Source: Bacteroidia bacterium (GTDB lineage Bacteria; Bacteroidota; Bacteroidia; AKYH767-A; OLB10). Taken from it: a stretch of 64,000 nt of DNA. Below the pieces are notes generated by a model. It was not told where the DNA came from. It was given only the letters and a program-made list of their open reading frames with translations, and did no database searches. This document shows positions 10,568-58,600 of this stretch, piece by piece; the first letter of the stretch is position 1, and each line of letters opens with the position of its first letter. The position numbers and the translations under genes were made by a program. Location: positions 69,575-133,574 of the forward strand of contig JBBQQQ010000003.1 of NCBI GenBank assembly GCA_038215705.1, in the 5' to 3' direction.

Positions 10568-12121
10568 TTATCGGTTCGATAAACTAATTACCGGTAAAAT
10601 CATTTCTTCGGGTGAAACACCACCATGCTGAAATGTATTTTTATAAAAGTTTACATAGTAATTATAGTTATTCGGATAAGCGAAAAATTTATCCTGTTTT
10701 GCAAACACAAATGTTGTGCTCAGGTTCGTTCGCGGGAGCATTGCATCGGAAGGATTTTTTATTTCAAATACATCCTTCTTGTCATAATTCAGATTTTTAC
10801 CCTGCTTGTACCGAAGATTGGTATTCGTATTTCTATCGCCAATGAGTTTTGAAGGTTCTTTCACCCTTATCGTGCCATGGTCGGTGCTGATTACGACTTT
10901 TACTTTTTTAGCTGTTATTTTACGAATGGCTTCCAGCAATGGTGAATGTTCAAACCACGAAACTGTAAGTGAACGGTAGGCTGATTCATCATCTGCCAGC
11001 TCACGTATCACCTGCATATCAGTTCGGGCATGTGAAAGCATGTCCACAAAATTATAAACAATAATGTTGAATTTATTCTGGAACATGTTGGCAATATTAT
11101 CAACCAGCATTTTTCCTGCTTCAAAATTGGTGATCTTGGTATATGAAAATTTCAGTTGCTTTCGCAGACGTTGTACCTGGTCGCCAAAAAAATCTTCTTC
11201 ATGCATGTTTTTTCCTCCTTCGTCTTCATCATTAAACCAGAGTTTCGGAAATCGCTTTTCGATGTCGGATGGCATCATGCCGGCGAAAATTGCATTACGT
11301 GAATATTGTGTTGCTGTTGGAAGAATACTGAAATATGCATCTTCTTCTATCACCTGTAATTCCTCACTCAGAATCGGAGCAATCACTTTCCACTGATCGA
11401 AACGAAGATTGTCGATGAGAATAAAAAATACGGGATCTTCTGTTGCTTCTATAACGGGGAAAATTTTCTTTCTGAAAAGAGTATGCGACATTACCGGTGC
11501 TTTATCATCCTGCTTCAGCCAGTTGATATAATTATTTTCAATGAACTTGCTGAACTGAACATTTGCCTCATCTTTCTGCATCGTGAGGATTTCGTACATG
11601 CCTTCATCTTTGGATTTCTCGAGTTCCAGTTCCCAAAAAATTAATTTCTTGTAAACATCAACCCATGCTTTATAATCAAGTTTATCATTCAGCGTCATTC
11701 CAATATTCCGGAATTCCTGCTGGTAAACAGAAGTGGCTTTTTCACTAACCAGCCGCTTGGTATCAAGATTCTTTTTTATTGAAAGCAGAATCTGGTTCGG
11801 ATTAACGGGCTTGATCAGGTAATCGGCAATCTTTGATCCGATTGCATCTTCCATAATATATTCCTCTTCGCTTTTGGTTATCATCACAACCGGAATCTCG
11901 GCATTCTTATTTTTAAGGCGAACGAGCGTTTCCAAACCTGAAAGTCCGGGCATATTCTCATCGAGAAAAACTATATCATACCGTTGCTTATTGAATAAAT
12001 CAAGCGCATCATGTCCATTGGTGGCTGTGGTAACGTCAAAACCTTTCTCTTGCAAAAAAAGCACATGCGGTTTCAGAAGATCAATCTCATCGTCGGCCCA
12101 AAGAATGCTTAATTTATTCAT
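10568..12121 (-). CDS. porX: Response regulator with C-terminal PglZ/alkaline-phosphatase-like domain (PorX-like T9SS regulator)
   Basis: 517 aa. N-terminal receiver domain (DDE...D58-like VFLDENMPGLSGLE...K) followed by a roughly 380-aa PglZ-type domain. Size and architecture match P. gingivalis PorX. Confidence 0.75.
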   Translation of the reverse strand: MNKLSILWADDEIDLLKPHVLFLQEKGFDVTTATNGHDALDLFNKQRYDIVFLDENMPGLSGLETLVRLKNKNAEIPVVMITKSEEEYIMEDAIGSKIADYLIKPVNPNQILLSIKKNLDTKRLVSEKATSVYQQEFRNIGMTLNDKLDYKAWVDVYKKLIFWELELEKSKDEGMYEILTMQKDEANVQFSKFIENNYINWLKQDDKAPVMSHTLFRKKIFPVIEATEDPVFFILIDNLRFDQWKVIAPILSEELQVIEEDAYFSILPTATQYSRNAIFAGMMPSDIEKRFPKLWFNDEDEGGKNMHEEDFFGDQVQRLRKQLKFSYTKITNFEAGKMLVDNIANMFQNKFNIIVYNFVDMLSHARTDMQVIRELADDESAYRSLTVSWFEHSPLLEAIRKITAKKVKVVISTDHGTIRVKEPSKLIGDRNTNTNLRYKQGKNLNYDKKDVFEIKNPSDAMLPRTNLSTTFVFAKQDKFFAYPNNYNYYVNFYKNTFQHGGVSPEEMILPVISLSNR

Positions 12122-12198: not shown

Positions 12199-13425
12199 TT
12201 GAACAAGAAAAAAATAATCAACGATCCGGTTTACGGGTTCATTACCATTCCTTTTGAAATTGTTCATGATATAATTGAACATCCCTGGTTTCAACGGTTA
12301 ACAAGAATTCGCCAATTAGGTTTAACCTATCTTGTTTACCCCGGTGCATTGCATACCCGATTTCATCATACGCTTGGCGCGATGCATTTGATGACAAACG
12401 CCATTGAAACACTTCGCTCAAAAGGACATTCCATTTCCGATAAGGAAGCCGAGGCAGCCTGCCTGGCTATACTTATGCACGATATCGGTCATGGTCCTTT
12501 TTCACATGCACTGGAAAAATTGCTTGTTAAGGATGTCTCGCACGAGTATATCTCTGAAATTGTGATGGAACGCTTTAATAAAATTTTCGAAGGCCGGTTT
12601 GAAGAAGCTATATCCGTTTTTAATAATACCCATCCTAAAAAATTTCTTCACCAATTGGTTTCCAGCCAGTTGGATGTTGACCGGCTGGATTATCTGAACC
12701 GTGACAGTTTTTTTACAGGCGTTTCAGAAGGAGTTATCAGCTCTGACCGCATCATTAAAATGCTTGAAATTGCGAACGGTAACCTGGCAATCGAAGAAAA
12801 AGGGATTTATTCTGTCGAGAAGTTTATCACCGCCCGCCGGCTCATGTACTGGCAGGTTTACCTGCATAAAACCGTTCTTGCAGCCGAATACATGCTTATA
12901 AATATTATTGTTAGAGCAAAAGAACTGGCAGCATCAGGACACCAATTGTTCGGCACCCCTTCGTTGCTGATTTTTCTGAACTCCGATCATTCTAAAGAAT
13001 CTTTCCGCACAAACCCTGATTTGCTGGAGCGTTTTGTTGAAGTAGATGACTTCGATGTGTTTACATCTATAAAAGTCTGGTGCAACCATCCCGACAAGGT
13101 TCTGGCAACCCTGTGCAGGAGCCTGGTAAATAGAAAATTGTTTAAGATCGAGATTGGAAAGACTCCTTTTTCGAAGCAGGTGATCGCCGAAAGGCAGGCC
13201 CAACTCGCCGATTACCTGGGAATTTCCTTCCGGGAGGCTGCCTTTTTTGTTTTCTCGCATTCCATTGAAAACAATGCTTACGATCAGGAAGATGACAAGA
13301 TCAACATTCTCTTCAAAACAGGCCAGGTGATTGATATTGCAGAGGCTTCCGATAATTTTAACATATCCGCGCTTACCCGCACCGTTACCAAACATTTTTT
13401 CTGTTCATATCGGATACAGGGTTAA
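12199..13425 (+). CDS. HD-domain phosphohydrolase
   Basis: 408 aa. HD motif H..HHTLGAMHL..HDIGHGPFSH. Sits in the conserved Bacteroidota position upstream of lpxD. Confidence 0.8.
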   Translation: MNKKKIINDPVYGFITIPFEIVHDIIEHPWFQRLTRIRQLGLTYLVYPGALHTRFHHTLGAMHLMTNAIETLRSKGHSISDKEAEAACLAILMHDIGHGPFSHALEKLLVKDVSHEYISEIVMERFNKIFEGRFEEAISVFNNTHPKKFLHQLVSSQLDVDRLDYLNRDSFFTGVSEGVISSDRIIKMLEIANGNLAIEEKGIYSVEKFITARRLMYWQVYLHKTVLAAEYMLINIIVRAKELAASGHQLFGTPSLLIFLNSDHSKESFRTNPDLLERFVEVDDFDVFTSIKVWCNHPDKVLATLCRSLVNRKLFKIEIGKTPFSKQVIAERQAQLADYLGISFREAAFFVFSHSIENNAYDQEDDKINILFKTGQVIDIAEASDNFNISALTRTVTKHFFCSYRIQG

Positions 13426-19210: not shown

Positions 19211-19286
19211 TTTTTTGGGTGAACTTTCGTACAATTGGGTGAATGTTTCAAATTTTTGGGTGAAAGTGGCCTTTTTTTGGGCAAAA
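19211..19286 (+). promoter_or_regulatory. Four phased direct repeats TTGGGTGAA (last copy TTGGGCAAA), spacing about 20-21 nt
   Basis: Read directly from the sequence: TTTTTTGGGTGAA..ATTGGGTGAA..TTTTTGGGTGAA..TTTTTTTGGGCAAAA, 200-280 nt upstream of the 1533-aa cargo gene. Confidence 0.4.
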
Positions 19287-19355
19287 AACAGTTATTAACA
19301 CTGTGTTAATAACTTTGAGCATTGATTTACAAATAGTTACCATTTAATAACCTTT

Positions 19356-19379
19356 AAACCCTTGTCAATTCAAGGGTTT
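19356..19379. promoter_or_regulatory. Perfect 9-bp inverted repeat AAACCCTTG-N6-CAAGGGTTT
   Basis: Palindrome 112 nt upstream of the 19491 start codon. A related copy sits upstream of the paralog at 25384. Confidence 0.4.
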
Positions 19380-19490
19380 ATATTATTTTCGGCCTCAATC
19401 CCACTAAAATAGCGGTTTAACACTTTTCGGGAATGGGGCTGCTAGCAGAAATGGGTATTAGAAAACCAATTCAAAAACCAATACAAAAAA

Positions 19491-22400
19491 ATGATTGAAA
19501 CAAAATCCCTCAAACCAGCAGGGCGGTCATGGCGAAATTTGCCATTAACAGCTTCTCTGGTGTCATTGCTTATGATGATCCCCTTCGTCACGGTTATGGC
19601 ACAAACAACGTACAATCCCCTCCGTTACTGGAATTTTAACGGTTCCAGTGCAGCTACCGATCAGATGGGTAACTACAATCTGAACTTTACCACCTATAAT
19701 TCAGCGTATACTGTTGAGAACAGCGGCCAGGTAGGAAAATACATTACACTTAACGGGTCATCAAGCCTTATCGATGGCGGATCAGTTTCGTTAAGCAATG
19801 CAGTAACAATTGAAATGTTATTAAAACCGGGTTATTTATTCAATCAATGTAAAATTATACAAAGAGGTGATGATGCATTTTCCGTACGAATGGAATATGC
19901 AAAAATATTTTTTACCACTACTCATAAAAATTCATCAGGTTCCAATGTTGTGAATGAGTTTGCAGTGGATCTGAACGGTATCGGCAGAAAGTCATACGGT
20001 TATTATGTTGATAATAACTGGCATCACATGGTTTTCCGTTTTGATGCTTCTTCAGGTACTAAGGAAATCTGGGTAGACGGACAGTTACCTTCCGGCTTTT
20101 CAACAACTGTTACACCTGGAAGCTTTTCTAACAGCGGAAGCACCACAGTTTATCTCAATCATACTATAGGATATGTAAAATATCTTGGAAGTATTGACGA
20201 GGTGGCTATTTATAATTCAGCCATTCCGTCTTCTCTTATCTACAAACATTACCTGGGTGTTCAAAACGGACAGGGTTATGATTTTGTAAACAATTATTCG
20301 GGTTCGGTACCTGCTGCAGCCAGCATCACGGGTTCAATCGATCCCACTGAGTTTGCTCCGGGTCATCCAAGTGTTAATGTTTCGGCAACAGACCAGGTTC
20401 TTTCTTTCCCGGTTCCACGTTACAAAACGGGTCATACCCTATTGCCTAACGTACCTTTATATGGTGTTGAATACCTTGGAGGTTTATTGCAGCCGGGAGT
20501 CTCTTACAACCAGGCTTTTGCAAATGCAAAAATTCAACAGGCTGACCTTATCAATAATTTCAATCAATCAATATTGATTGCAAGCAATACAGGTGAATAC
20601 GGTTATGCGAACGATACCACCAAATTTTCAGGTTGGTTTATCAAGTATGCCAATAACAACCCTTCTAAAAAAACCAGTGCATTTTCTTTCTGGCCGCAAT
20701 TAAATCCGAGAAATATCGGAAAGGCTTCAAGTCTTGCTTATGCAGAATGTAATTGTATGAGCAATAACCATTATCTGCGAAACAGCTCCGGTCAGTTTCT
20801 TGATCTTTCTGGAAATGTTACTTCCGACAAATGGCTCAGTCCTGCTGCCCCGGTCGATTCAATCGCATACGACGGCTTAACCCAGCGTTTTTACCTTCAG
20901 CAAATCACTGCCCGCATGACCCGTCCTCTGGATCTGATCTTTGAAAATGGAGAAACACTGCCATTCTATAACAACCCTACAGCTCTTGCAAAAGATCCTG
21001 CTGTACTGAATGATAAAAATAACAGTGGCCTCGACTGGTATACCTACGAAGGACGCCGCGCTAAAGAAAAAGCGCTTGCGTATCGTAACCAGTTTATGAA
21101 CCTTCCTGCTTTATCTAATACCAAGTTTGCCTATTTCCAGGTTGACGGTCAGTCAACATGGCGTTTCAAATACAGTGAAATGCGTGAGGCAAGCACTCAG
21201 ATAAATGGACAGTATTACCCAACAGGTGATATTTACATGCGTTATCCCGACAACTGGAGATACTGGAGCAGTGCATGGCATGGATGGCAGTGGGTAGCTG
21301 AATCAAGAAAAGTTGAACTTGCAAACGGCGATAAATTGTATTCACCTCCTGTTGCTGCAGGCTGGGATTTTGATGAAACTAAAAATGTTCGCCCTGCACA
21401 ATGGCTGGGAATGTTAAAAGCGTTCTCAATGACCGGTGCTGAATTCTTCTATCCTTCATTTTTCACCACATCCACTCCTTACCAGGATCCAAAGAACTGG
21501 GCATGGCAGGTAGTTATGCCTTCATATTCACAGGCTATAAGTAGTCGCTATGAGGACTTATTGCGTAACGGATTTCTGATGGAAGGTGATGTTCCTGATA
21601 ATTATTCAACACCTTCTTATAATGCTTACTCTTTTAAATCGGGTGACTTACGCAAGCTGGTTGTAATCAGGAAACATAATACGCTTGCAAAATATGCGAT
21701 TACAGGAACGCTTCAGCCTAACTCAAATATGATGGGCAATGCTGAAAATTCAGGTGTTGCTTCTATAGCGCTTGACGGACAAACGCTGAAGTTCCAGGTG
21801 AGACGCCAGGGAAGCACATATATCTACGACAAATCAAATGCTGCTGCTCCTGTGTTTTATCAGCTCGACGGATGGCATGAAGCAACTCACCCTTCCTCAT
21901 GGTCTAAGGACTTTAATTTCGAGGCAGAATTATTTGACAACTCCAATTCAAGTGCAGTAATCAAAACGGTTGTTCCTTCAGGAACCACAGCTGGTGACTT
22001 CACTAATTATACAAGCTATGTGAGCTTTACAGCTGCGTCGGATATCATATTCAACTTTACTCCCCGCAAAGGAGCTCCTTCAACGCAATATCTGTGGGTG
22101 AGAGCACGCAGTAAAGATGGTTCTTCTACCGGTTTCACAGCTACATTGAACAGCGGTGCGGTAAATACTTTCGATTGCATCCGTGATACAAACTGGGTTT
22201 GGTACCGTTTCAACACCAGTAATGCTGCAGTTGTTTACAATGGCCTTACTACAACCAGCAACCAGTTAAAAATTACTGCTCTTAATACCAAAATTGAAAT
22301 TGACAAAGTTTCCCTGATGAGCACTTCAAGCGCTGTTTATGGAAATGCAGTAAATTCATGTACCAATGCGCAGGCAAGCATCACTGCTAACGGTTCAACC

Positions 22401-24092
22401 ACATTCTGTCAGGGCGGAAGTGTAAATCTTACAGCAAGCACCGGCACATCATACCAGTGGTCTAACGGCGCAACTTCCCAGGCAATCACTGTCTCCTCAA
22501 CCGGAACGTATACAGTTACCGTTACAACAAATGGTGTAGGAACTTCTACTTCTTCGCCTGTAAGCGTAACTGTTAACCCATTACCTACAGCAACCATCAG
22601 CGCCAGCGGATCTACTACCTTCTGCCAGGGTGGATCGGTAACGCTGACAGCTTCTTCAGGATCGTCCTATCTGTGGAGTCCGGGAAATCAGACTTCACAA
22701 TCAATAACTGTTACAACAGGTGGTACTTATAATGTACGTGTAACAAATTCTAACAGCTGCGCTAAAGTTTCGGCAAATACAAGTGTTACTGTAAACAGTC
22801 TGCCGGTTGCAACAATCTCACCAAGCGGATCATTAAATCTTGCTGCAGGAGGAAGTGTAACGCTTACCGCATCATCAGGAAGCAGCTATCTGTGGTTACC
22901 CGGTAACCAGACTTCACAATCTATTAGTGTGAACACAGCAGGTTCCTACACAGTAAGAGTTACAAATGGTTCAGGCTGTTCTGCGACATCTGCTGCTGCA
23001 GTAGTTACTGTTGCTTCCTCAGGTGGTGGAACTGCAACCATTACTACTTCAGGTCATACTACATTCTGCCAGGGTGGAAGTGTAACACTTACTGCCAGCA
23101 ACGGAACGTCCTTCCTGTGGTCAAATGGATCTACCAATAAATCAATTACCGTGAGTGCATCCGGAACATATACAGTAACGGTATACAATGGAACAACTCC
23201 ATCAACGTCAGCTCCGGTAAGTGTAATTGTTTGGCCCCTTCCAACGGCAACAATCACTGCCAGTGGACCTACATCTTTCTGTACAGGCGGTACGGTTACA
23301 TTAACAGCGTCTTCCAATTACTCGTATTCCTGGACTCCGGGTGGACAAACCAGTCAGTCAATAAACGTATCCACTTCCGGTAATTACAATGTTATAGTTA
23401 CTAATTCGAACGGCTGTACAAAAACTGCATCTTCGGTGCCTGTTACTGTTTCAAGTTGTACTGCCTGTGATCCTCCTTATGGCCTGGTAACTTCAAATGT
23501 CAAGTATAATTCGGCTACTTTTTCATGGGGACATCCCGGTACCGGTCAAACCCAGTACAATGTTAAGATCAAAAACATGCAGACGGGGTATAACTATATC
23601 ACCGGTAAAGTTCCTTACACTACTCAGACTATCTCTGTTGGAGCAAATCAAGCGACAAGTTATCGCTGGTGGGTACGCTCCTGGTGTGGTACTTCAGTAA
23701 GTTCTACTTACGCAGGTTACCTGGCCTTCACTACTCCATCAGTTCGAACAATGTCAAATGGAATTAATGAAGAAACTCCTGAGCTGACAGAAACATTCCT
23801 TGATACAGAGGATGATCCTTCGATGACGTTCTATATCGATGAAAATCAGGTTCAGGTATTCCCGAACCCAGCCAGTACGAGTGCTGCCATTTCGTTTAAG
23901 GTTGATCAGAATGAAAAAATGACACTTACGATTATGGAGATCAATGGCAAAGTGATTTCAACTGAGACTATAGATGCAATGGAAGGTATTAATCTTCATG
24001 ACATGGATCTGAGTAATTATCCGAAAGGATTGTATATGATACAGCTTACAGGAGGTGGAAAAACAACCACTAAGAGGCTTGCTGTTCAATAA
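19491..24092 (+). CDS. Very large T9SS-secreted protein: LamG-like domain + uncharacterised module + Ig-like repeats + FN3 + type-A CTD
   Basis: 1533 aa with a signal peptide. A LamG/concanavalin-like region is followed by an about 600-aa Trp-rich conserved module. Seven or more 75-aa Ig-like repeats (TFCQGGSVTLTAS..YLWSPGNQTSQSITV) and an FN3 domain follow. The C-terminal sorting domain reads VFPNPASTSAAISF...GLYMIQL. Confidence 0.85.
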   Translation: MIETKSLKPAGRSWRNLPLTASLVSLLMMIPFVTVMAQTTYNPLRYWNFNGSSAATDQMGNYNLNFTTYNSAYTVENSGQVGKYITLNGSSSLIDGGSVSLSNAVTIEMLLKPGYLFNQCKIIQRGDDAFSVRMEYAKIFFTTTHKNSSGSNVVNEFAVDLNGIGRKSYGYYVDNNWHHMVFRFDASSGTKEIWVDGQLPSGFSTTVTPGSFSNSGSTTVYLNHTIGYVKYLGSIDEVAIYNSAIPSSLIYKHYLGVQNGQGYDFVNNYSGSVPAAASITGSIDPTEFAPGHPSVNVSATDQVLSFPVPRYKTGHTLLPNVPLYGVEYLGGLLQPGVSYNQAFANAKIQQADLINNFNQSILIASNTGEYGYANDTTKFSGWFIKYANNNPSKKTSAFSFWPQLNPRNIGKASSLAYAECNCMSNNHYLRNSSGQFLDLSGNVTSDKWLSPAAPVDSIAYDGLTQRFYLQQITARMTRPLDLIFENGETLPFYNNPTALAKDPAVLNDKNNSGLDWYTYEGRRAKEKALAYRNQFMNLPALSNTKFAYFQVDGQSTWRFKYSEMREASTQINGQYYPTGDIYMRYPDNWRYWSSAWHGWQWVAESRKVELANGDKLYSPPVAAGWDFDETKNVRPAQWLGMLKAFSMTGAEFFYPSFFTTSTPYQDPKNWAWQVVMPSYSQAISSRYEDLLRNGFLMEGDVPDNYSTPSYNAYSFKSGDLRKLVVIRKHNTLAKYAITGTLQPNSNMMGNAENSGVASIALDGQTLKFQVRRQGSTYIYDKSNAAAPVFYQLDGWHEATHPSSWSKDFNFEAELFDNSNSSAVIKTVVPSGTTAGDFTNYTSYVSFTAASDIIFNFTPRKGAPSTQYLWVRARSKDGSSTGFTATLNSGAVNTFDCIRDTNWVWYRFNTSNAAVVYNGLTTTSNQLKITALNTKIEIDKVSLMSTSSAVYGNAVNSCTNAQASITANGSTTFCQGGSVNLTASTGTSYQWSNGATSQAITVSSTGTYTVTVTTNGVGTSTSSPVSVTVNPLPTATISASGSTTFCQGGSVTLTASSGSSYLWSPGNQTSQSITVTTGGTYNVRVTNSNSCAKVSANTSVTVNSLPVATISPSGSLNLAAGGSVTLTASSGSSYLWLPGNQTSQSISVNTAGSYTVRVTNGSGCSATSAAAVVTVASSGGGTATITTSGHTTFCQGGSVTLTASNGTSFLWSNGSTNKSITVSASGTYTVTVYNGTTPSTSAPVSVIVWPLPTATITASGPTSFCTGGTVTLTASSNYSYSWTPGGQTSQSINVSTSGNYNVIVTNSNGCTKTASSVPVTVSSCTACDPPYGLVTSNVKYNSATFSWGHPGTGQTQYNVKIKNMQTGYNYITGKVPYTTQTISVGANQATSYRWWVRSWCGTSVSSTYAGYLAFTTPSVRTMSNGINEETPELTETFLDTEDDPSMTFYIDENQVQVFPNPASTSAAISFKVDQNEKMTLTIMEINGKVISTETIDAMEGINLHDMDLSNYPKGLYMIQLTGGGKTTTKRLAVQ

Positions 24093-24143: not shown

Positions 24144-24434
24144 GTCAGCATTTTCGCTGAGTGACCTGAAAATTCTTTTCCTGTTATCAAAATGCCAGAA
24201 AAAATTTTAAAACTCACACTCCGTTTATCCGGAATATAGTTTGAGTTTTTTTGCTCTCACCTCTGACGGTGGGCTTTTCAAGCTGGCGGTTAAATCAAAA
24301 TCCTGTAATTATTAATGCAAATCTTACATGTTACCGAAGTATCAAAAGATGCTTCATATCTGTGCCGGGGTGAGCCTATTTTTGTTGCATCATATCCAAT
24401 GAACGAAAATAACTACTTAATAAATTTTAAAGAA

Positions 24435-25217
24435 ATGAAACAAACATCTACAAACAGAATGGAAGTTTACTCAACCGGCCAGGCAATCAGAAAAAATGCT
24501 TTTAAGCTTTTTATCATCCTTGCAATGAGTGGTACTTCATTAACGTATGCACAACGAGTTGCAAACACTGACATTAACCCGGTGGTGATTCAGCCTTCCG
24601 GCGAAAAAAATCCGGGATCCGGAACTGTTAAAGGCAATGTAATTGTTGCTCCTATCGCTCCAACTATTTCTTCACTTCAGATGCTTGACATGGGTCATGA
24701 CAAAGCAATTCTGACCTGGGATAATATGTCGAATTTTGACAGTATAATCTTTCGTTATGCTCCATCCGGTGCAAGTACCACACGGATAGTAGCAATTTCG
24801 GGCAATCCGAATCCTGAAAGATATTACCTGTTGGGTTTGCAGTCTCAAACCACTTATGATATTGAAGTAAGTACTGTTGCTTCTAATGGTGTGCGCTCAT
24901 CATGGAGTTCTCCTTTAACTGTTACAACACTTACTGAACCCACTCCACGCCTTTCACAGGGAAATACCAACAGGTTAATTGTAAATCCGAATCCGGCAAC
25001 CACATTAACTAATATTTCCTTTGTGACTACCAACAGCATGCCACAGCAGGTTAGTATTGTATCCTCTGCAGGTCGTGTAATGTACAGCAGACAAATTATT
25101 CCAAATGATGATAAAGTTCAAATGACCATTGATGTGACTGCTTATCCTCCGGGAATCTATATGGTTCGCGTGAATAACAACAGCAATGTATCTGTTGAAC
25201 GACTTATCAAACTGTAA
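24435..25217 (+). CDS. Small T9SS cargo: signal peptide + FN3 domain + type-A C-terminal sorting domain
   Basis: The ORF opens at 24315. The start was chosen at MKQTS..FKLFIILAMSGTSLTYAQ (signal peptide). FN3-like region (ILTWDN..YDIEVSTV) and CTD LIVNPNPATTLTNISF...GIYMVRV. Confidence 0.65.
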   Translation: MKQTSTNRMEVYSTGQAIRKNAFKLFIILAMSGTSLTYAQRVANTDINPVVIQPSGEKNPGSGTVKGNVIVAPIAPTISSLQMLDMGHDKAILTWDNMSNFDSIIFRYAPSGASTTRIVAISGNPNPERYYLLGLQSQTTYDIEVSTVASNGVRSSWSSPLTVTTLTEPTPRLSQGNTNRLIVNPNPATTLTNISFVTTNSMPQQVSIVSSAGRVMYSRQIIPNDDKVQMTIDVTAYPPGIYMVRVNNNSNVSVERLIKL

Positions 25218-25241
25218 AAATCCTATCTGTTTGAGTGATTG

Positions 25242-25269
25242 GGAGGCCGGAGGGCCTCCCTTTTTTTTG
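25242..25269 (+). terminator. Rho-independent terminator
   Basis: GGGAGGCC-GGAG-GGCCTCCC stem followed by a T8 run. Confidence 0.8.
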
Positions 25270-25383
25270 AAATGACGGATGCAATAACAAGACTTTAAAA
25301 TTACCAATACCCCCATTCCACCTTAGCAAAGAAGGATTTTTTCATAAAAACTGACACCTTCTCATCAACCACCAAAAATAAAT

Positions 25384-25416
25384 AAACCCTGTAAAATTAA
25401 GGGTTTCCAAGGGTTG
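25384..25416. promoter_or_regulatory. Inverted repeat AAACCCT-N9-AGGGTTT plus extra half-site AAGGGTTG
   Basis: Same palindrome family as 19356-19379, located 233 nt upstream of the 25639 start. Confidence 0.4.
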
Positions 25417-25638
25417 AACTTCGAAAAATTACCAATCAGAAGCCCTTTTCAGGTAAAATATTACACAGGTGACCATAAATGAAACAATCATCCACGGAGG
25501 CTTTATGCGCGGAATATATTTGTCACCGTTGGCCTTCTAACAAGTAAGACAATTATATAACAATGTAAATAATTCAGTAAAAAACATATGCCTTAACCAG
25601 AATAAAAAAAACACTCAAACAAAAACTCAACAGATACA

Positions 25639-28600
25639 ATGAAAAACAATTTTACAGATCAGGTTTTAAAAAGTGTAAGCTCATTAAGCGCAACGTTCCA
25701 GTTCTGTTTGATGCTCGTATTGCTTATACTAATGGCAATCATCAATGCAGGTGCTCAAACTGTCAATCCAGTCAGGTACTGGACATTCAATGGAACAAGT
25801 GCTTCAACAGATTCCATGGGTCAGAACAATCTTAATTTTACCAGTTATGGAAGCCAGTATACGGTTGGTACAAACGGTCAGGTTGGAAAATTTCTTACCC
25901 TTGATGCCAATTCGAATCTTATTGATGGCGGATCGCTTAGCTTAACGAATGCGGTAACGGTAGAATTTTTATTAAAACCCGGCTACAAATTCAATACAAC
26001 TAATATCATGCAGCGTGCCGATGGCGCTTTCTCCATCAGGATCGAATATGCGACTTTAACATTCAGCACCACTCATAAAGCTGCAAATGGTGCAACCATT
26101 GAAGATAATTTTGCCATATCACTGGAAGGTCTTGGAAGGAAATCATACGGATACTATGTAGACAACAACTGGCATCACCTGGTGTTTCGTTTTGATGCAG
26201 CAACCGGATCCAAACAAGTATGGGTGGACGGTCAGCTTCCTGCAGGATTCAGCAAAACGATAACTGCAGGCTCATTCCAGAATAGTGGAAATATTAATTT
26301 CTATCTTAATCATTCAGTAAGCTACGTAAAATACTTTGGCAGCATTGATGAACTTGCAATTTATAATACCGCAATTCCTTCTAACCTTATTTACAAACAT
26401 TATCTCGGGGTTCAAACAGGACAACCTTATAACTTCGTAAATAATTATTCAGGAACTATTCCTCCTGCATCCTCAACAACCAGTCCGCTCGACCCAACTG
26501 AATTTGCACCGGGTCATCCGACAGTCAATGTTTCCGCAATTGAACAATTACAGAAGTATCCGCTACCACGTTACAAACCGGGAAACACCCTGATGAAAAA
26601 TTTCAACTGGATGGATCCTAAATTTATGGGAGGTTTATTGCAACCCGGTGTGACCAATCAACAGGCCGCCAATAACAGTGCAGTCATACAGACTGAACTT
26701 GCAAAAAATTTCAACTACTATTTCCAGGTAGGACTTGGCAATGGCATATTTGAAACAGCCTGGACCAACGCGGCAAATGCGAACCCCGACTTTAAGTTAT
26801 CGCTGATAATTTTTCGCGGACAATTAAATGGCAACAATAGTGAGCTCACTAATCAAAATAAAACTGCAGCACACTATCTGCAGAATTCAAGTGGGCAGTT
26901 TATCGATGCCAATGGCAATGTAACAACTTCCAAAATCTGGAGACCTACTGCTCCTACCTCATCATACAATGCCGATGGCAATGCCATATACACCATGCTA
27001 ACCGACATGTATTCGCGGTTAAACCGGAATGTGGATGTAGTTAATGAAAATGGTGAGGTCTTCCCACATCCATCCGAAACAGCAATGGCAATGGACCCTG
27101 CTGTGTTAGCTGCAAAGAATGCTTCAGGCCTCGACTGGAAATCGTTTCTGTCACGAAAATATAAAGAGAACGAAACACAATCGTACCGTGATATTATCAT
27201 GTCACACCCACGTATGAGTTCTGCTAAATTTACTGAATATGCGATTGACGGTTTCCCCGAGTACCGCATGAAATACAGCGAAGCGCGGTCGGTAAATTCT
27301 CAGATTAATGGTCAGTATTATCCGACGCCTGATTTCTATCCCCGATGGTCTAATAACTGGAGAAACTGGGTTTCTGCGTGGCATGGCTGGCAGTGGATCG
27401 TAGAATCGCGCGTGCATGAACTGGCTGCAGGAGACAGATTGTATTCTCCTTTCGTAGCTGCAGGATGGGATGCAGATGAAGAAAAAAATATACGCCCTGC
27501 ACAATGGTTAGGTTTGTTAAAATGCCTGGGCATGACCGGTGCTGAATTTTATTATCCCGGGTTCTTCTCACTGGCTGCTCCTTGGCCCGATTCTAAAAAC
27601 TGGATCTGGCAGGCTGCTATGCCACCTTATGCACAGGCAATAACCAGCAGGTATGAAGACCTAATTCGCAATGGAGAATTAATGTTAGGCGATGTTGGAA
27701 ACAGCTATGTAACTCCTACCGCTCCGGGCTATGCGTTTTGGACTGGTGACCTTAGAAAACTGGTAGTAGTGCGTAAACATAATACCGTTAGCAAATACGC
27801 TATCACTGGAACCATCCAGCCTAACAGCAGCATGACCGGCAATGCAGAAAATGAAAGTGTAGCTACAATCACACTTGATGGTCAGGTATTATCATTCAAA
27901 GTTAAAAGACAGGGCAGCACCTATATTTATGATAAATCAAATCCATCAGGAGCTATATTTTACCAGTTAGATGGATGGCATGAAAAATCGCATCCTTCAC
28001 ATTGGTCACATGATTTTAATCTGGAGGCTGAATTATTCGATAACACAAATACACAAGTTGCAATTAAAACTGCTGTGCCTGCCGGAACTGCAGCAGGTGA
28101 TTATACAAATTTTACCAGCTACCTTGCCTGGCCTGACGGGGTTACCAACCCACAGCCTGTTGAATACAACTTTGCACCACGGGGCAATTTTAACAGCAAT
28201 CTGTATGTATGGGTAAGAGCACGCAGCCGGGGTGGCGTTACTTCCAGCATGAATGTTCAACTGGATAACAATGCTGCAAAAACAATCGGCTGTATCAGTG
28301 ATACTGCATGGACCTGGTACCGGTATGATGCCTGTACACAACAGGAAATCCGCTTCCAGAATATCTCTATCCAAAATCATATAATTAAACTTACACCCGG
28401 CAATGATAAGCTGGAGATTGACAAAGTATTGCTTACAGCAGATGCTTCACTGCTCCTCAATTCCGCACCTCCGTCGTGTGGAGCAGCAACAGCAACCATT
28501 ACTCCTTCAGGTAACACAACTTTTTGCACAGGAGGAACAGTCACCCTTACTGCAAGCGCCGGGACTTCATATCAATGGACTCCTGGGGGTCAAACAACAC

Positions 28601-31368
28601 AGTCGATTGTTGTGAATGCTTCAGGTTCGTATAATGTAACAGTCGGTTCCGGTGCAGGTTGTGCAGCTATTGCAAATGCTGTCACAGTTTCTGTAGTTCA
28701 GGCACCCAGTGCACAAATAACAACAGGTGGATCTACAACACTTTGCCCTGGCGCTTCCGTTACCCTGACAGCTCCTTCGGGAATGTCGGGGTATCTTTGG
28801 ATGCCGGGCGGACAAACTACGCAATCGATCACCACTTCAACCGCTGGATTCTATACAGTAAGAGTTACTAATGCTGGCGGATGTTCTGCTACATCATCCC
28901 CGGTGAATGTTACAGTAGGTCAAACTCCAGTGGCAACAATCACAGCCGGAGGAACTACATCATTTTGCCAGGGTAGTAGTGTTACGCTTACCGCTTCAGC
29001 AGCCAACAGTTATTTATGGTTTCCCGGAGGACAAACAACTCAGTCGATAACGGCATCGTCTACAGGAAATTATACCGTGCGTGTAACTGGATCAGGGGGT
29101 TGTACTGCTATGTCAAATCCATCTACAGTTACAGTGTATGCGCTTCCAACAGCAACCATTTCCGCAAACGGGCCTACTTCTTTTTGCACAGGTGGCAACG
29201 TAACTCTTACTGCAGCTAATGCAACTTCCTACTTATGGTTACCGGGCGGACAAACTTCCCAGTCAATAAATGTAACATCCGCAGGATCGTATTCAGTACG
29301 TGTGACTAATAGCTCAGGATGTTCAGCAACATCAACAGCAACAAATGTAAATGTATCAGCATACCCGGTTGCAACCATCACACCCGCAGGATCTACTTCA
29401 TTGTGTGCAGGAAGTTCTGTCGGTTTATCAGCCAGCACAGGCACCGCTTATTTGTGGACTCCGGGCAACCAGACAACACAAACAATTTCAGCTACGACTG
29501 CAGGTGCATATACCGTTAGAGTAACTAATAGTGCCGGTTGTTCAACAACATCGCAGCCAACCAATATTACAGTCAATCCGGCTGTTAACGCAACTATCAG
29601 TGCCAATGGCCCTACAGCTATTTTACCCGGCGGTAGTGTAACACTTACAGGAGCGGGAGGCACTTCGTATGTATGGTCTCCGGGAGGACAAACCACTTCT
29701 TCTATAACTGTTAACACACCGGGTTTCTATAGTGTAACAGCTTATTCCGCGTCGGGATGTTCGGCAACATCCACTCCAACAGAAATTACCCTTGTAAATA
29801 TAAATACACCACCGGCAACAATTACCGCATCCAATAATTCAGGTATGTTGTGTCCTGGAAATTACATGACCTTAACAGCATCTGCAGGAAGTTCTTATTT
29901 ATGGACCCCAGGCGGACAAACCACGCAATCGATCAACATCAGTATTGCAGGATCGTACTCTGTAGATATCACCGACCTTACAGGTGTTACCATTTCATCA
30001 GCCACGTTTGATGTACTTTATAAGCCTGCACCCGACGCACCTGCAATCATGAGTGCATACATTCCTTCAGCATCCTTTCAGTTATCAGCATACGAGCCAA
30101 CAGCCCATTCGTATTTATGGTCGAACGGTGCTACAACCGATGCCATAACAGTGAACAATACCGGAACTTATACAGTGCGTGCAATAAATGGATTTGGTTG
30201 TAAGTCGGCACCGCAAACAATGACCGTGACTTCATTATCGTCACAGCATTGCGGAACACCAAACATGCTTTCTCACTATGGCATTACTAAAACAAGCGCT
30301 GTTGTTTCATGGAATCCCAGCGTAACTGCCGATTCATTTCGTGTTGAATACACACGGATATCAACTGCACAAAATTTCTCAGTGAATGTTGCGGGATCAC
30401 AAAGTAAGATAACTCTTTCCGGGCTTACGGAAGGTGAATTGTATAAATGGAATGTTGTTGCAATCTGCAGTGGCATTCAAACTGGAAGTGCCATAAAACA
30501 ATTCACCACATTAAACGGACCGTTACCTTGTGGCTCAACTCCTCAGAACTTATCGAATGATGTAGTCAACAGCACCATGGCAAAAGTTTCATGGTTTGAT
30601 ACACAGGCCGACAAATTTGTAATTCGCTACCGTGCAGTAGGAACACAAAATTATCTTTACAGGAGAGCTTTTAATTCACTAACTTCAGGGTTAATCGAAG
30701 GACTTACACCATCAACAAACTATGAGTGGAGTGTTCGCTCGGCATGTGCCGGAAATGTTAGTCTTTATTCAGCACCAAAATTCTTCACCACTCCTGCAGC
30801 ATGCCCCGCAATTGGTCCATTTGCCGTTAGTGAAATCACTTTTAACAAAGCACTTGTTTCCTGGACACCATCTACACTTGTTGACAGCGTTATGGTTAAA
30901 TGGGCAGTAAGTGGTACAACAGATTACAGGCATGTTAAAATAGCTGCTTCACCTGATCCGGGAGAATACTGGATACTGGGACTTGAACCTGAAACAACAT
31001 ATGATGTGTGGGTCGCTACAAAGTGTGATGCCGGAAGCACTTCCATGTGGGGTGCAGGTGATTCCTTCACTACCTTCACGGATCCCAATTTACGTTTTAC
31101 TCCTGAAGCAGGTGCCATTCATCTGAATGCGTATCCTAACCCAACAAAATTTGAACTTAGTTACGTGTTTGAATCAAAAGACGACAAACCGTACCTGGTA
31201 AAAGTATGTGATATGGCGGGCAGGGAATTACTTGCCGAAGAACGAATTGCAAACGAAGGAAAAACAGGAGACAAAGTTGATTTACCCGGATTCTCGGGAG
31301 GGTTGTATATGCTGATCATTCAAAAAGGAGGTCAGGTAGGACGATTCAAGTTCAATATTCATGAATAA
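25639..31368 (+). CDS. Very large T9SS-secreted paralog: LamG-like + uncharacterised module + about 10 Ig-like repeats + 3 FN3 + type-A CTD
   Basis: 1909 aa. The N-terminal 850 aa align co-linearly with the 19491 protein (for example YYVDNNWHH.VFRFDA, WHGWQW..ESR, RPAQWLG.LK...MTGAEF.YP). The C-terminal sorting domain reads LNAYPNPTKFELSY...GLYMLII. Confidence 0.85.
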   Translation: MKNNFTDQVLKSVSSLSATFQFCLMLVLLILMAIINAGAQTVNPVRYWTFNGTSASTDSMGQNNLNFTSYGSQYTVGTNGQVGKFLTLDANSNLIDGGSLSLTNAVTVEFLLKPGYKFNTTNIMQRADGAFSIRIEYATLTFSTTHKAANGATIEDNFAISLEGLGRKSYGYYVDNNWHHLVFRFDAATGSKQVWVDGQLPAGFSKTITAGSFQNSGNINFYLNHSVSYVKYFGSIDELAIYNTAIPSNLIYKHYLGVQTGQPYNFVNNYSGTIPPASSTTSPLDPTEFAPGHPTVNVSAIEQLQKYPLPRYKPGNTLMKNFNWMDPKFMGGLLQPGVTNQQAANNSAVIQTELAKNFNYYFQVGLGNGIFETAWTNAANANPDFKLSLIIFRGQLNGNNSELTNQNKTAAHYLQNSSGQFIDANGNVTTSKIWRPTAPTSSYNADGNAIYTMLTDMYSRLNRNVDVVNENGEVFPHPSETAMAMDPAVLAAKNASGLDWKSFLSRKYKENETQSYRDIIMSHPRMSSAKFTEYAIDGFPEYRMKYSEARSVNSQINGQYYPTPDFYPRWSNNWRNWVSAWHGWQWIVESRVHELAAGDRLYSPFVAAGWDADEEKNIRPAQWLGLLKCLGMTGAEFYYPGFFSLAAPWPDSKNWIWQAAMPPYAQAITSRYEDLIRNGELMLGDVGNSYVTPTAPGYAFWTGDLRKLVVVRKHNTVSKYAITGTIQPNSSMTGNAENESVATITLDGQVLSFKVKRQGSTYIYDKSNPSGAIFYQLDGWHEKSHPSHWSHDFNLEAELFDNTNTQVAIKTAVPAGTAAGDYTNFTSYLAWPDGVTNPQPVEYNFAPRGNFNSNLYVWVRARSRGGVTSSMNVQLDNNAAKTIGCISDTAWTWYRYDACTQQEIRFQNISIQNHIIKLTPGNDKLEIDKVLLTADASLLLNSAPPSCGAATATITPSGNTTFCTGGTVTLTASAGTSYQWTPGGQTTQSIVVNASGSYNVTVGSGAGCAAIANAVTVSVVQAPSAQITTGGSTTLCPGASVTLTAPSGMSGYLWMPGGQTTQSITTSTAGFYTVRVTNAGGCSATSSPVNVTVGQTPVATITAGGTTSFCQGSSVTLTASAANSYLWFPGGQTTQSITASSTGNYTVRVTGSGGCTAMSNPSTVTVYALPTATISANGPTSFCTGGNVTLTAANATSYLWLPGGQTSQSINVTSAGSYSVRVTNSSGCSATSTATNVNVSAYPVATITPAGSTSLCAGSSVGLSASTGTAYLWTPGNQTTQTISATTAGAYTVRVTNSAGCSTTSQPTNITVNPAVNATISANGPTAILPGGSVTLTGAGGTSYVWSPGGQTTSSITVNTPGFYSVTAYSASGCSATSTPTEITLVNINTPPATITASNNSGMLCPGNYMTLTASAGSSYLWTPGGQTTQSINISIAGSYSVDITDLTGVTISSATFDVLYKPAPDAPAIMSAYIPSASFQLSAYEPTAHSYLWSNGATTDAITVNNTGTYTVRAINGFGCKSAPQTMTVTSLSSQHCGTPNMLSHYGITKTSAVVSWNPSVTADSFRVEYTRISTAQNFSVNVAGSQSKITLSGLTEGELYKWNVVAICSGIQTGSAIKQFTTLNGPLPCGSTPQNLSNDVVNSTMAKVSWFDTQADKFVIRYRAVGTQNYLYRRAFNSLTSGLIEGLTPSTNYEWSVRSACAGNVSLYSAPKFFTTPAACPAIGPFAVSEITFNKALVSWTPSTLVDSVMVKWAVSGTTDYRHVKIAASPDPGEYWILGLEPETTYDVWVATKCDAGSTSMWGAGDSFTTFTDPNLRFTPEAGAIHLNAYPNPTKFELSYVFESKDDKPYLVKVCDMAGRELLAEERIANEGKTGDKVDLPGFSGGLYMLIIQKGGQVGRFKFNIHE

Positions 31369-53219: not shown

Positions 53220-53292
53220 CACGGGTGGAGAGACTCGAACTCCCAGCCAATGGTTTTGGAGACCACTACTCTACCAATTGAGCTACACCCGT
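53220..53292 (-). tRNA. tRNA-Trp (anticodon CCA)
   Basis: Manual fold: acceptor ACGGGTG/CACCCGT, anticodon loop CTCCAAA, T-loop GTTCGAGTC. CCA is not encoded. Confidence 0.85.
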
Positions 53293-53344
53293 AACTTTTT
53301 ATGATCTTTCTCACTGTGACAGCAGGCATCTAACTTATCCCTTT

Positions 53345-53430
53345 CAACTTCTCACCCGTCTCTCCGAGCCGGGCAGGCTTGCCACTTCTCACTTCTCACT
53401 TCTCACTTCTCACTTGTTGTATGACTTATT
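53345..53430. repeat. Repeat element: core CACCCGTCTCTCCGAGCCGGGCAGGCTTG + (CACTTCT)x4-5 + GTATGACTTAT flank
   Basis: Same core sequence as in the 62836-63100 array. Lies between tRNA-Trp and tuf. Confidence 0.8.
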
Positions 53431-53493
53431 TTCAATCCGTTTGCAGCAGTAAAATCCCGTTAAGGATCAACTGCTGCAAAAAGATATGTTTTA

Positions 53494-54681
53494 TTACTTA
53501 ATAATTTCAGTCACCTGACCGGCACCAACGGTTCTGCCACCTTCACGGATAGCGAAACGAAGACCTTTGTCCATAGCAACAGGAACAATAAGCTGAACGG
53601 TGATAGTTACGTTATCACCAGGCATTACCATTTCACGTCCTTCAGGAAGTACGATTTCACCGGTAACATCAGTTGTTCTCAGGTAAAATTGAGGACGGTA
53701 TTTATTATGGAATGGAGTATGACGTCCACCTTCTTCTTTTTTAAGAACATAGATTTCAGCTTTGAAATCAGTGTGCGGAGTAATGGATCCCGGTTTAGCG
53801 ACAACCATACCACGACGGATATCGTTTTTCTCAATACCGCGGAGCAACAAACCTACGTTATCACCTGCTTCACCTTTGTCAAGGATTTTGCGGAACATTT
53901 CCACACCTGTAACGGTTGAAGTAAGTTTTTTCTCCTGCATTCCCAGGATATCAACAGTATCGTTTGAATTGATAATTCCTCTTTCGATACGTCCTGTGGC
54001 AACAGTACCACGACCTGTAATAGAGAATACATCTTCAACAGGCATCAAAAACGGCTTGTCGATATCACGTGGAGGAATTGGAATAAAAGTATCCACGGCT
54101 TCCATAAGATCGTTAATTTTTGGAACCCATTTAGCATCATTATTCAAACCGCCCAGGGCAGATCCGCGGATGATTGGTGTGTTATCACCATCAAACTGAT
54201 AGAAACTGAGAAGTTCACGGATTTCCATTTCAACAAGATCCAATAACTCAGGATCGTCAACCATGTCAACCTTATTCATGAAAACAACAATCTTTGGTAC
54301 ACCTACCTGACGTGCAAGCAGAATGTGCTCGCGTGTTTGTGGCATAGGTCCGTCAGTTGCTGCAACAACAAGTATAGCACCATCCATCTGGGCGGCACCA
54401 GTAACCATGTTCTTTACATAATCGGCGTGACCAGGACAGTCAACGTGTGCATAGTGACGTGCTTTGGTTGAATATTCAACGTGTGCGGTATTAATCGTAA
54501 TACCACGCTCTTTTTCTTCAGGAGCGTTATCAATCGAAGAGAAATCTCTAACTTCTGCCAGACCTTGTGATGCAAGTACTGAAGTGATTGCAGCTGTAAG
54601 AGTAGTTTTACCGTGGTCAACGTGACCAATGGTTCCAATGTTTACGTGGGGTTTGGAACGATCGAATTTTTCTTTTGCCAT
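53494..54681 (-). CDS. tuf: Elongation factor Tu
   Basis: 395 aa. [15 protein letters not shown] and NKVD motifs. Confidence 0.97.
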
Positions 54682-54890
54682 TTTGTATTGGTTATTTAAA
54701 CGTGGTTTTTATTAATTGATTTTGGATTCCTGTTCGTGTGATCCTGCTTACCGTTGAACTGTGAATCAGGACACGAGGCACGACAGGAATTTTTTTTTGT
54801 ACTATTTATATATTAAACTTTTTATTTTTGAACTGTAATAAGCAAACTAAACTCATCCAAACTCCCCGCTGCCGTCCGAAAGGCAGATGG

Positions 54891-54963
54891 AGCCAATGAC
54901 CAGGATCGAACTGGTGACCTCATCCTTACCATGGATGTGCTCTACCGACTGAGCTACATTGGC
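54891..54963 (-). tRNA. tRNA-Thr (anticodon GGT)
   Basis: Manual fold: acceptor GCCAATG/CATTGGC, anticodon loop ATGGTAA, T-loop GTTCGATCC. CCA is encoded (54888-54890). Confidence 0.85.
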
Positions 54964-55056
54964 TTTTGAGCATACCGGGATTCCAGTTTTGCAGGAACCT
55001 GCAATGAAGCCTGATCACTAAATCTAAAAACCAGCGACTCTGGTTTTTTACTCTTG

Positions 55057-55129
55057 AGCGGAAGACCGGGCTCGAACCGGCCACCCTCAGCTTGGAAGGC
55101 TGATGCTCTACCAAATGAGCTACTTCCGC
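55057..55129 (-). tRNA. tRNA-Gly (anticodon TCC)
   Basis: Manual fold: acceptor GCGGAAG/CTTCCGC, anticodon stem TCAGC/GCTGA, loop CTTCCAA. Confidence 0.85.
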
Positions 55130-55327
55130 TTATCACCATTCGTAGCTCCTCGCAGAGAAGCGAAGGATGGTTATTGGTACAATCCGTAACTCTTAATGAG
55201 CGAAGGATGGATATTTTTTTATACTCTTCTGATCGCAACGAGCAAAAGTTCACTCATTCTCTCAATTAAGTCAACCTCTGAACTTAATCTCACCCGCCCT
55301 CCTACGCGAAGCTACAGAGGGCTAAGT

Positions 55328-55409
55328 GGGGAGAGAAGGATTCGAACCTTCGAAGTCGTAAGACAACAGATTTACAGTCTGTCCCATTTGGCCACTCTGG
55401 TATCTCCCC
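55328..55409 (-). tRNA. tRNA-Tyr (anticodon GTA), long variable arm
   Basis: Manual fold: acceptor GGGGAGA/TCTCCCC, anticodon loop CTGTAAA, T-loop GTTCGAATC, 82 nt. Confidence 0.85.
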
Positions 55410-55462
55410 AATTTACCTGACAGCCATCAGGAACGGAATGGTTTTCACCACACTTTCCGAAG

Positions 55463-55536
55463 AGCCGATGGAGGGATTCGAACCCCCGACCCACTGATTA
55501 CAAATCAGTAGCTCTGGCCAACTGAGCTACATCGGC
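55463..55536 (-). tRNA. tRNA-Thr (anticodon TGT)
   Basis: Manual fold: acceptor GCCGATG/CATCGGC, anticodon stem ACTGA/TCAGT, loop TTTGTAA, T-loop GTTCGAATC. Confidence 0.85.
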
Positions 55537-55612: not shown

Positions 55613-55822
55613 ACGGTTAGATAAAAAATTTGTCACCAACACCATGAACATCCTGAGCATTGATTATTAACGAATTACCTCATTGTTAAATACAATTTTT
55701 TATTAGAAACGCACCACCTAAGGGCTAAATAACTAATTTGTTATCAACAAAATATCAAAATTTCTATTTAGTCGGAATATTTCTTAAATTTGATACTTGT
55801 TGAATTTCCAAATCTGAATCAA

Positions 55823-58584: not shown

Positions 58585-58600
58585 TTAAATTCTGATCATC

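Follow-up and report, generated by a model that had tools for sequence, protein, structure and literature searches.

A 23-bp inverted repeat upstream of two tandem T9SS-cargo paralogs: a candidate operator-like site that is often lost

Dimeric helix-turn-helix regulators use operators that are interrupted palindromes. The CRP site spans 22 bp and reads AAATGTGA-N6-TCACATTT, while ROK-family repressors such as NagC have 23-bp operators and act through DNA looping. Here we describe a small set of 23-bp inverted repeats, restricted in lineage, with the consensus AAACCCTT-N7-AAGGGTTT, located upstream of two paralogous genes for T9SS cargo. Like the operators of CRP and NagC, the element is an interrupted palindrome of 8-7-8 layout, A/T-rich at its outer ends, its half-sites are constant while the spacer is variable, and its position relative to the promoter is fixed. 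One copy lies over the predicted -33 element and promoter spacer, and paired copies in relatives are ~16 helical turns apart. Unlike these operators, the putative site has no cognate regulator gene nearby, and it departs from a rigid dimer site in that some loci carry symmetric arm extensions or altered spacing. The sequence of its half-site matches no operator known to us.

The two genes lie in the window, the 64-kb stretch of DNA that was analysed, part of an uncultured Bacteroidota MAG whose nearest named relatives are MAGs of 'Flavisolibacter sp.'. The second gene (25639-31368, plus strand) encodes a 1909-aa protein with a signal peptide, a LamG-like N-terminal domain, Ig/PKD/FN3 repeats and a T9SS C-terminal sorting domain; its start is backed by an MKNNFT N-terminus conserved in orthologs. 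The first gene (19491-24092, plus strand) encodes a 1533-aa paralog, also T9SS cargo, which is 53% identical to the 1909-aa protein over 1308 aa, with the sorting domain at both C-termini. About 700 aa of the 1909-aa protein match no known family, and the ~950-aa N-terminal region common to the big proteins gave no sequence match in Pfam, NCBIfam or the PDB beyond the LamG-like domain. A structure model of the N-terminal 960 aa was of moderate confidence (pLDDT 65); its first domain was LamG-like, and its glycoside-hydrolase-like hits were weak and unreliable.

With a small FN3/T9SS gene (24315-25217) standing between them, the 1533-type gene (19491-24092) and the 1909-type gene (25639-31368) form a three-gene module. 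This module is conserved in L002, L137-L141, L143 and L144, where L numbers denote homologous loci. The gene order begins with a PorX-like regulator on the minus strand, an HD-domain gene, lpxD, lpxC/fabZ, lpxA and an ABC ATPase, and continues with two small ORFs, a CHU_C protein, the 1533-type gene, the small FN3/T9SS protein and the 1909-type gene. As this order is conserved in several relatives, the tandem paralogs are old. In the window, no gene for a DNA-binding regulator was found over ~19 kb of upstream and 32 kb of downstream sequence, and the syntenic loci have none either; only L140 has an OmpR-type pair after its 1909-type gene. Further downstream, five tRNA genes are clustered at 53220-55536 (minus strand), adjoining tuf and nusG as well as the L1 and L10 ribosomal protein genes. 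At 55790-56890, before two large ORFs at 56923-62680, an ORF encodes a Peptidase_S74 (endosialidase chaperone) domain, of a kind common in phage tail fibres and in surface proteins that cleave themselves.

The repeat upstream of the 1909-aa gene, hereafter copy 2, was read from the sequence at 25384-25406 and has no strand of its own. It is made of AAACCCT (25384-25390), a 9-nt spacer GTAAAATTA (25391-25399) and AGGGTTT (25400-25406), and on its 6-nt core it reads AAACCC-N11-GGGTTT, 23 bases long. An extra right half-site, AAGGGTTG, follows on the plus strand after two nucleotides (CC), at 25409-25416. The initial annotation had described AAACCCT-N9-AGGGTTT-CC-AAGGGTTG at 25384-25416, and the sequence agrees; the 233 nt that it gave from palindrome to ATG are also correct, from the end at 25406 to 25639. 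The extra half-site it included is present but only loosely supported, and its status as part of the element is uncertain: tandem right half-sites elsewhere are spaced differently, as in AAGGGTT-C-AGGGTTTT in a compound variant of L072, L075 and L143, and L002 and L003 have none.

The FN3/T9SS gene that precedes copy 2 has a canonical intrinsic terminator of its own on the plus strand (GGGAGGCC GGAG GGCCTCCC, then T8; 25241-25270). This terminator is 100% conserved in L001, and a hairpin of -15 to -19 kcal/mol occurs at -280/-270 in nine of the ten 1909-type loci that reach that far, with the L005 hairpin displaced by ~20 nt relative to the others. Because the terminator ends 114 nt before copy 2, copy 2 is not the terminator of that gene. 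We also rejected copy 2 as a canonical terminator in itself, as it has a 9-nt loop, is followed by CCAAGGG instead of a T-tract and was not reported by the terminator scan. On either side of copy 2 stands an exact 12-nt direct repeat, AAAATTACCAAT, at 25297-25308 and 25425-25436, 128 nt apart. The second of these is kept in L001 and L003 as AAAATTACCA, and the repeat has TTACCA in common with the TTAC(C)A boxes of the same region.

To place the two copies relative to transcription, promoters and starts were predicted from the TA..TTTG that is invariant in the aligned upstream regions of each clade; the flavobacterial -7 box occupies -12 to -5 (PMC9723704). For the 1909-aa gene, alignments point to the Bacteroidetes sigma-A -7 box (TAnnTTTG) TATATTTG at 25515-25522 on the plus strand. 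Its TA..TTTG is invariant in an alignment of seven loci and present in 11 of 13 1909-type loci. With a predicted transcription start at ~25527, copy 2 would lie at -143 to -121 and the extra half-site at -118 to -111. The -7 box predicted for the 1533-aa gene, TATTTTCG at 19384-19391 (plus strand), has one mismatch to TAnnTTTG and is a perfect TATTTTTG in L019, L091, L105, L137 and L143, with a predicted start at ~19396. A TTG is found 18-20 nt before the -7 box in most of the 21 1533-side promoters (~18 by our count).

Copy 1, upstream of the 1533-aa gene, reads AAACCCTTG TCAATT CAAGGGTTT, that is AAACCC-N12-GGGTTT, at 19356-19379 and likewise has no strand. It is predicted to lie at -40 to -17, its left arm includes the -33 TTG at 19362-19364, and in seven loci the site ends 4-5 nt ahead of the -7 box. 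The two copies in the window do have the same arms, as first noted, but their spacers differ (N9 in copy 2, N10 in copy 1). Nor do they appear to be positional equivalents, as copy 1 overlaps the predicted core promoter while copy 2 is far upstream of its own.

These positions bear on the comparison with other known systems. MerR-type operators lie between the -35 and -10 elements, and the dyad of copy 1, but of copy 1 only, similarly extends from in or beside the upstream promoter element to a few bases before the downstream one. Unlike in MerR systems, however, its centre (~-29) is shifted upstream, copy 2 (-132) falls outside the promoter and no MerR-family gene is found near the paralogs. 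Bidirectional intrinsic terminators, built of an A-tract, a G+C stem and a T-tract, have in common with the element its AAA-CCC...GGG-TTT layout. Identical arms terminate homologous genes in L067 and L050-L056/L066, and copy 1 passes a terminator scan; copy 2, unlike a terminator, precedes the predicted promoter by ~110 nt. The genes are T9SS cargo, like PorX targets, and a gene for a PorX-like response regulator (receiver and PglZ domains, 517 aa) is present in conserved synteny on the minus strand at 10568-12121. It precedes the first T9SS cargo paralog by 7.4 kb, and its syntenic position is unchanged in L139 and L140. The PorX footprints of Porphyromonas gingivalis are AT-rich and not palindromic (tattacttccataattattgttgtg, gattcgcgcaaaaatacaatatcttt and tcgaaaaaaatgtttttctttgc; PMC8265659), and we rejected PorX as the binding protein because AAACCC-N11-GGGTTT bears no resemblance to them.

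Other classes of element were set aside at copy 2. A Bacteroides-type invertible promoter, for which two inverted repeats should surround a promoter-bearing segment of 150-400 bp, was rejected since copy 2 has no partner repeat in the intergenic region and the -7 box is outside any repeat pair. A divergent promoter was rejected because the minus-strand ATT-TATTTTTG after copy 2 is not conserved in L001, L002, L003 and L072, and a small ORF or sRNA because no ORF is conserved and the region is the least conserved relative to L001. A search with Rfam 15 over the whole window reported only tRNAs at or above the gathering score, and the best sub-threshold matches in the two intergenic regions reached 13-24 bits against thresholds of 47-141. 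We searched the literature for the motif and for palindromes in T9SS promoters and found nothing relevant.

The occurrence of the same arms upstream of both paralogs is not a coincidence. The window contains exactly two matches to AAACCCT-N(4-20)-AGGGTTT, at 19356-19379 and 25384-25406, against 0.01 expected by shuffling, and none of 100 shuffles gave two, although shuffling exaggerates the significance since terminator hairpins in these genomes usually also consist of an A-run and CCC followed by GGG and a T-run. The 7-mer arm alone is not enriched (13 matches in the window, 11.2 expected), and any 7-nt palindromic arm common to both intergenic regions was seen in 5 of 20,000 shuffles. A one-mismatch N10 match at 13011-13034, inside the HD-domain gene, was taken as chance. 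A leftover of a duplicated promoter was rejected, as the aligned upstream regions of the paralogs have only the palindrome in common.

We extended the search to 144 homologous loci, 71 from genomes, 65 from metagenomes and 8 found by exact-protein look-up. Over the 1.04 Mb of these loci and the window, AAACCC-N11-GGGTTT occurs 15 times, against ~0.05 expected per spacing, and every one of the 15 matches lies 134-303 nt upstream of a gene of the family. Beyond the window, sites of this kind precede family genes in other uncultured Bacteroidota, and they turned up separately in the genome set, in the metagenome set and among the look-up loci. Among 19 upstream AAACCC-GGGTTT sites, the spacing is N11 in 15, N12 in one (copy 1 of the window) and N26 in three; a position-weight scan of the upstream regions detected no additional sites in any locus. 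Two other lineages (L139 and L143) also have the element before both paralogs within one genome. Altogether, chance does not account for the shared arms, as the initial annotation had it, and the element is associated with this family of genes.

Across the family, the sites fall into three classes by position. The proximal class of 1533-type genes, at about -29, is found in the window, L068, L137, L019/L139, L105, L091 and L143; L142 has the site with one mismatch, and it is decayed or absent in L138, L016, L098, L140, L141 and L144. A distal class at about -198, 168-169 bp upstream of the proximal site, is present in L019/L139, L105 and L091, while L143 and L140 have differently spaced hairpins at that position in place of the site. 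The 1909-type class (-143 to -121, about -132) is made up of the window, L002, L003, L073 and L139, and in all five the site lies exactly 131 nt before the -7 box. The latter four are orthologous loci from two or three genomes, with proteins 71-72% identical, and the intergenic sequence that neighbours these in-register sites is too diverged to align. L072, L075 and L143 carry the compound variant mentioned above, which in full reads AAACCCTGAA-AGCCCCT-N7-AAGGGTT-C-AGGGTTTT and whose AAGGGTT keeps the register.

The same arms had been taken to argue for functional conservation, and this holds in part. While the register is kept in L002, L003, L073 and L139, the expected conservation in orthologous promoters fails in the nearest relative: in L001, the closest ortholog at 93% amino acid identity, the 1909-type site reads AAACTCA..AAGGCTT, with both arms mutated. 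The surrounding stretch, 25284-25432, is the least conserved of the intergenic region relative to L001 (50-67% identity, with flanks at 80-100%). The site is also mutated in L004 and, in all, has been lost in about ten other loci, being absent from L010/L137, L060, L005-7, L074, L138, L140, L141 and L144. L138, with a 1533-type protein of 81% identity, has decayed versions of both sites. Where both upstream regions of a genome are known, both sites are found in the window, L139 and L143, the 1533-type site alone in two genomes (L001/L068 and L137/L010) and neither in five; the 1909-type site alone is found in none. The perfect arms of copy 2 and the register that it has in common with lineages at 71-72% identity show that it is ancestral and that selection maintained it in the lineage of the window. 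Judged from these alignments, copy 2 is a real cis-element of the predicted control region of this family, of ancestral origin and readily lost.

The upstream regions of both genes contain other conserved features. Across the window, L001-L010, L060 and L072, the 1909-type upstream region (25241-25527) has a near-fixed register with almost no insertions or deletions between loci whose proteins are 63-93% identical. It contains TTACA boxes at about -175 (TGACA in the window, 25352-25356) and at -66 to -62 (25461-25465), and a TCAACGC-like block at about -37, before the -7 box. On the 1533 side, four direct repeats of TTGGGTGAA (the last being TTGGGCAAA) lie at 19214-19285, exactly 21 nt apart, with a T-run before each. 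These GGGTGAA repeats are at about -183 to -112, upstream of the predicted promoter, and are kept in L068, L016, L019, L025, L029, L030, L059, L091, L137 and L141-L143, among others. The array combines a 9-bp repeat with a 12-bp spacer, the geometry of sites for LytTR-type response regulators.

Between the GGGTGAA repeats and copy 1, a perfect palindrome with 12-bp arms, AGTTATTAACAC-T-GTGTTAATAACT, occupies 19290-19314 and is unique in the window. It is found as GTTAT(T/C)AACA-N-TGTTAA(T/C)AAC in L019, L025, L029, L030, L059, L068, L076, L091 and L137, and probably serves as a second operator. Within its predicted 5' leader, the 1533-type gene has a conserved block, CTTTTCGGGAATGGGG at 19423-19438, which has no Rfam match; the form GCTTTTC(C)GGGAATGGGC is present in L016, L019, L068, L076, L091, L105, L137, L138, L142 and L143. 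A third, imperfect palindrome, AACCCCAGTAATACAGCGGGTT, is seen at the predicted 1533-type start in L019 (2842-2865), L105 (1341-1364) and L139, and the window has a weaker version of it, ATCCCACTAAAATAGCGGTTT, at ~19398-19418.

Copy 2 is probably an ordinary, often lost regulatory site for a putative DNA-binding protein. Our preferred reading, to which we give a probability of about 0.4, is more specific: copy 2 would be an operator-like site for a putative dimeric regulator that is common to the tandem paralogs. We infer the promoters, the starts, the protein binding and the direction of regulation from sequence comparison. The dimer would bind the palindrome as double-stranded DNA and control both paralogs. 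At the 1533-aa gene, a protein on the -33 element and the spacer (-40 to -17) would block RNA polymerase and thereby repress the gene, and the second site 168-169 bp upstream in some relatives would allow DNA looping. At -143 to -121, copy 2 is too far away to block the polymerase directly and would thus be an upstream or auxiliary site, whose effect on the 1909-aa gene could be activation or repression. Several observations are consistent with an operator. In 12 sites, taken from several diverged lineages and at three unrelated positions (about -198, -29 and -132), the six core pairs hardly vary, whereas loops and flanks differ, so that half-sites are conserved while the spacer varies, and the position relative to the promoter is held in orthologs (the 131-nt register of the 1909-type sites, the 4-5 nt of the proximal ones). 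Over these 12 sites, the covariation score was 0.124 against 0.102 in shuffles, and 91 of 500 shuffles reached it; a near-invariant core without covariation would fit the recognition of sequence rather than shape, although pairs that do not vary speak neither for nor against a conserved hairpin. Some of the sites would also make poor hairpins, such as copy 2 itself (-8 kcal/mol, z = -0.56), the L003 site (z = -1.0) and the distal L091 site (z = -0.7). Finally, in L019/L139, L105 and L091 the paired sites are 168-169 bp apart, which amounts to 16 helical turns. The excess of the palindrome upstream of family genes, the overlap of copy 1 with the -33 TTG and the lack of any genome with the 1909-type site alone also favour this reading.

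Nearly as likely as the operator-like reading, although still doubtful, is that the inverted repeats work by folding, as RNA or as extruded DNA, and that their sequence is kept for the stability of the stem only. As weak terminators or insulators, they could then protect regulated promoters against transcription from upstream; they could also be stem-loops of upstream transcripts. In either case, AAACCC/GGGTTT would persist only since its three G:C pairs alone stabilise the stem. Copy 1 suits such a role, as its RNA fold reaches -13.5 kcal/mol (z = -4.6) and the scan flagged it as terminator-like, with a 10-bp stem, a 6-nt loop and a T-rich tail, the pattern of an intrinsic terminator. Moreover, the arms extend symmetrically with locus-specific sequence, over 13 bp in L002 (-19.1 kcal/mol, z = -5.3) and as nested stems of 11 and 4 bp in L072/L143 (-21.6 kcal/mol, z = -4.0 in L072), which counts against an operator because a fixed protein site would not predict such extensions. 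In an energy profile with the -7 box as its anchor, 8 of 11 1909-type loci show a dip near -130, and these dips include unrelated hairpins in L010, L060 and L005, that of L060 being followed by T6; the occurrence of unrelated hairpins at the same position in L010 and L060 again speaks against an operator. So do the changed spacing of the hairpins that replace the distal site in L143 and L140 and, in more distant clades, proximal ACCC/GGGT arms with loops of 7-15 nt and flipped outer pairs (L025, L029, L030 and L059). Identical arms are genuine terminators 34-52 nt past the stop codons of distant family members, in L067 (3736-3760), in the L050 group (L050, L052, L053, L055, L056 and L066) and in L046, with AAAACCCTTGAATACATCAAGGGTTTATTTGTTTTT and AAAAAACCCTGGAAACAGGGTTTTTTT as examples. 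The constancy of N11 may be largely inherited rather than selected, as the surroundings are intolerant of indels (the -33/-7 spacer and the fixed 1909-type register). A regulator gene was not found nearby, copy 2 is mutated within the least conserved stretch of L001, and it is not obvious by what mechanism a lone site at -132 would work, all of which count against the operator. Folding, however, explains copy 2 itself poorly. Copy 2 would form a stem of 7 bp with 3 G:C pairs and a 9-nt loop, without a T-tract on the plus strand, and at -7 to -8 kcal/mol (z = -0.56) it folds no better than shuffled sequence. Lying 114 nt past the terminator and upstream of the predicted start, it is contained in no known transcript. 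Besides the lack of covariation over 12 sites, the same core sequence would be needed in three independent hairpins, and among the wider 1533-side clades only loci with AAACCC have a strong hairpin at -30. The excess of unrelated hairpins at -130 is itself weak, with 4 of 6 loci against ~1.7 expected by our own estimate.

We consider it rather unlikely that copy 2 is a decaying relic, once functional in an ancestor as operator or hairpin, now inert and merely unmutated so far. The mutation of both arms in L001, the low conservation of 25284-25432, the decay of both sites in L138 (81% identity of the 1533-type protein) and the loss of the element in most 1909-type orthologs would all fit this. 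Nevertheless, the window retains 14 of 14 arm positions, and its register agrees with that of L002, L003 and L139, whose proteins are 71-72% identical; as neutral survival over such divergence is very unlikely, selection acted in the lineage of the window until recently. Equally improbable to us is a single factor that reads the 23-bp palindrome at about -198 and -29 of the first paralog and at -132 of the second and loops the DNA to co-ordinate the paralogs, or that reads the hairpin in a sequence-specific manner. Its setting would be the ~300-bp near-frozen upstream region with the 21-nt-phased GGGTGAA repeats, the second palindrome and the TTACA boxes. Very improbable, finally, is a dispersed extragenic palindrome of the REP or MITE type, or a site for site-specific recombination between the two promoters. 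A short palindrome does occur in more than one intergenic region, paired copies surround a ~146-nt module in three relatives, and AAAATTACCAAT direct repeats flank copy 2. Yet the window has only 2 copies in its 64 kb, ~250 kb of flanking DNA from other loci have none, the copies keep orthologous, in-register positions across genomes, the spacers of the window copies are unrelated and leave no crossover core in common, and no transposase or recombinase gene is found nearby. REP and MITE elements typically have many scattered copies, which neither the 64 kb of the window nor the related loci (1.04 Mb) contain. An insertion of a mobile element, which the 12-nt direct repeat might suggest, was rejected, as L001 carries the whole segment without insertion or deletion.

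Copy 2 is a further instance of a familiar kind, ordinary regulatory DNA, and bears on no long-standing open question. To our knowledge, almost nothing is known about the regulation of T9SS cargo genes outside a few model Bacteroidetes. The secreted proteins encoded by the two genes studied here are very large, and the family to which they belong is uncharacterised and widespread among uncultured Bacteroidota. A cis-element common to the paralogs, together with the predicted -33/-7 promoters and the repeat arrays, provides an entry point to the putative regulator of these proteins and to the conditions under which they are expressed.
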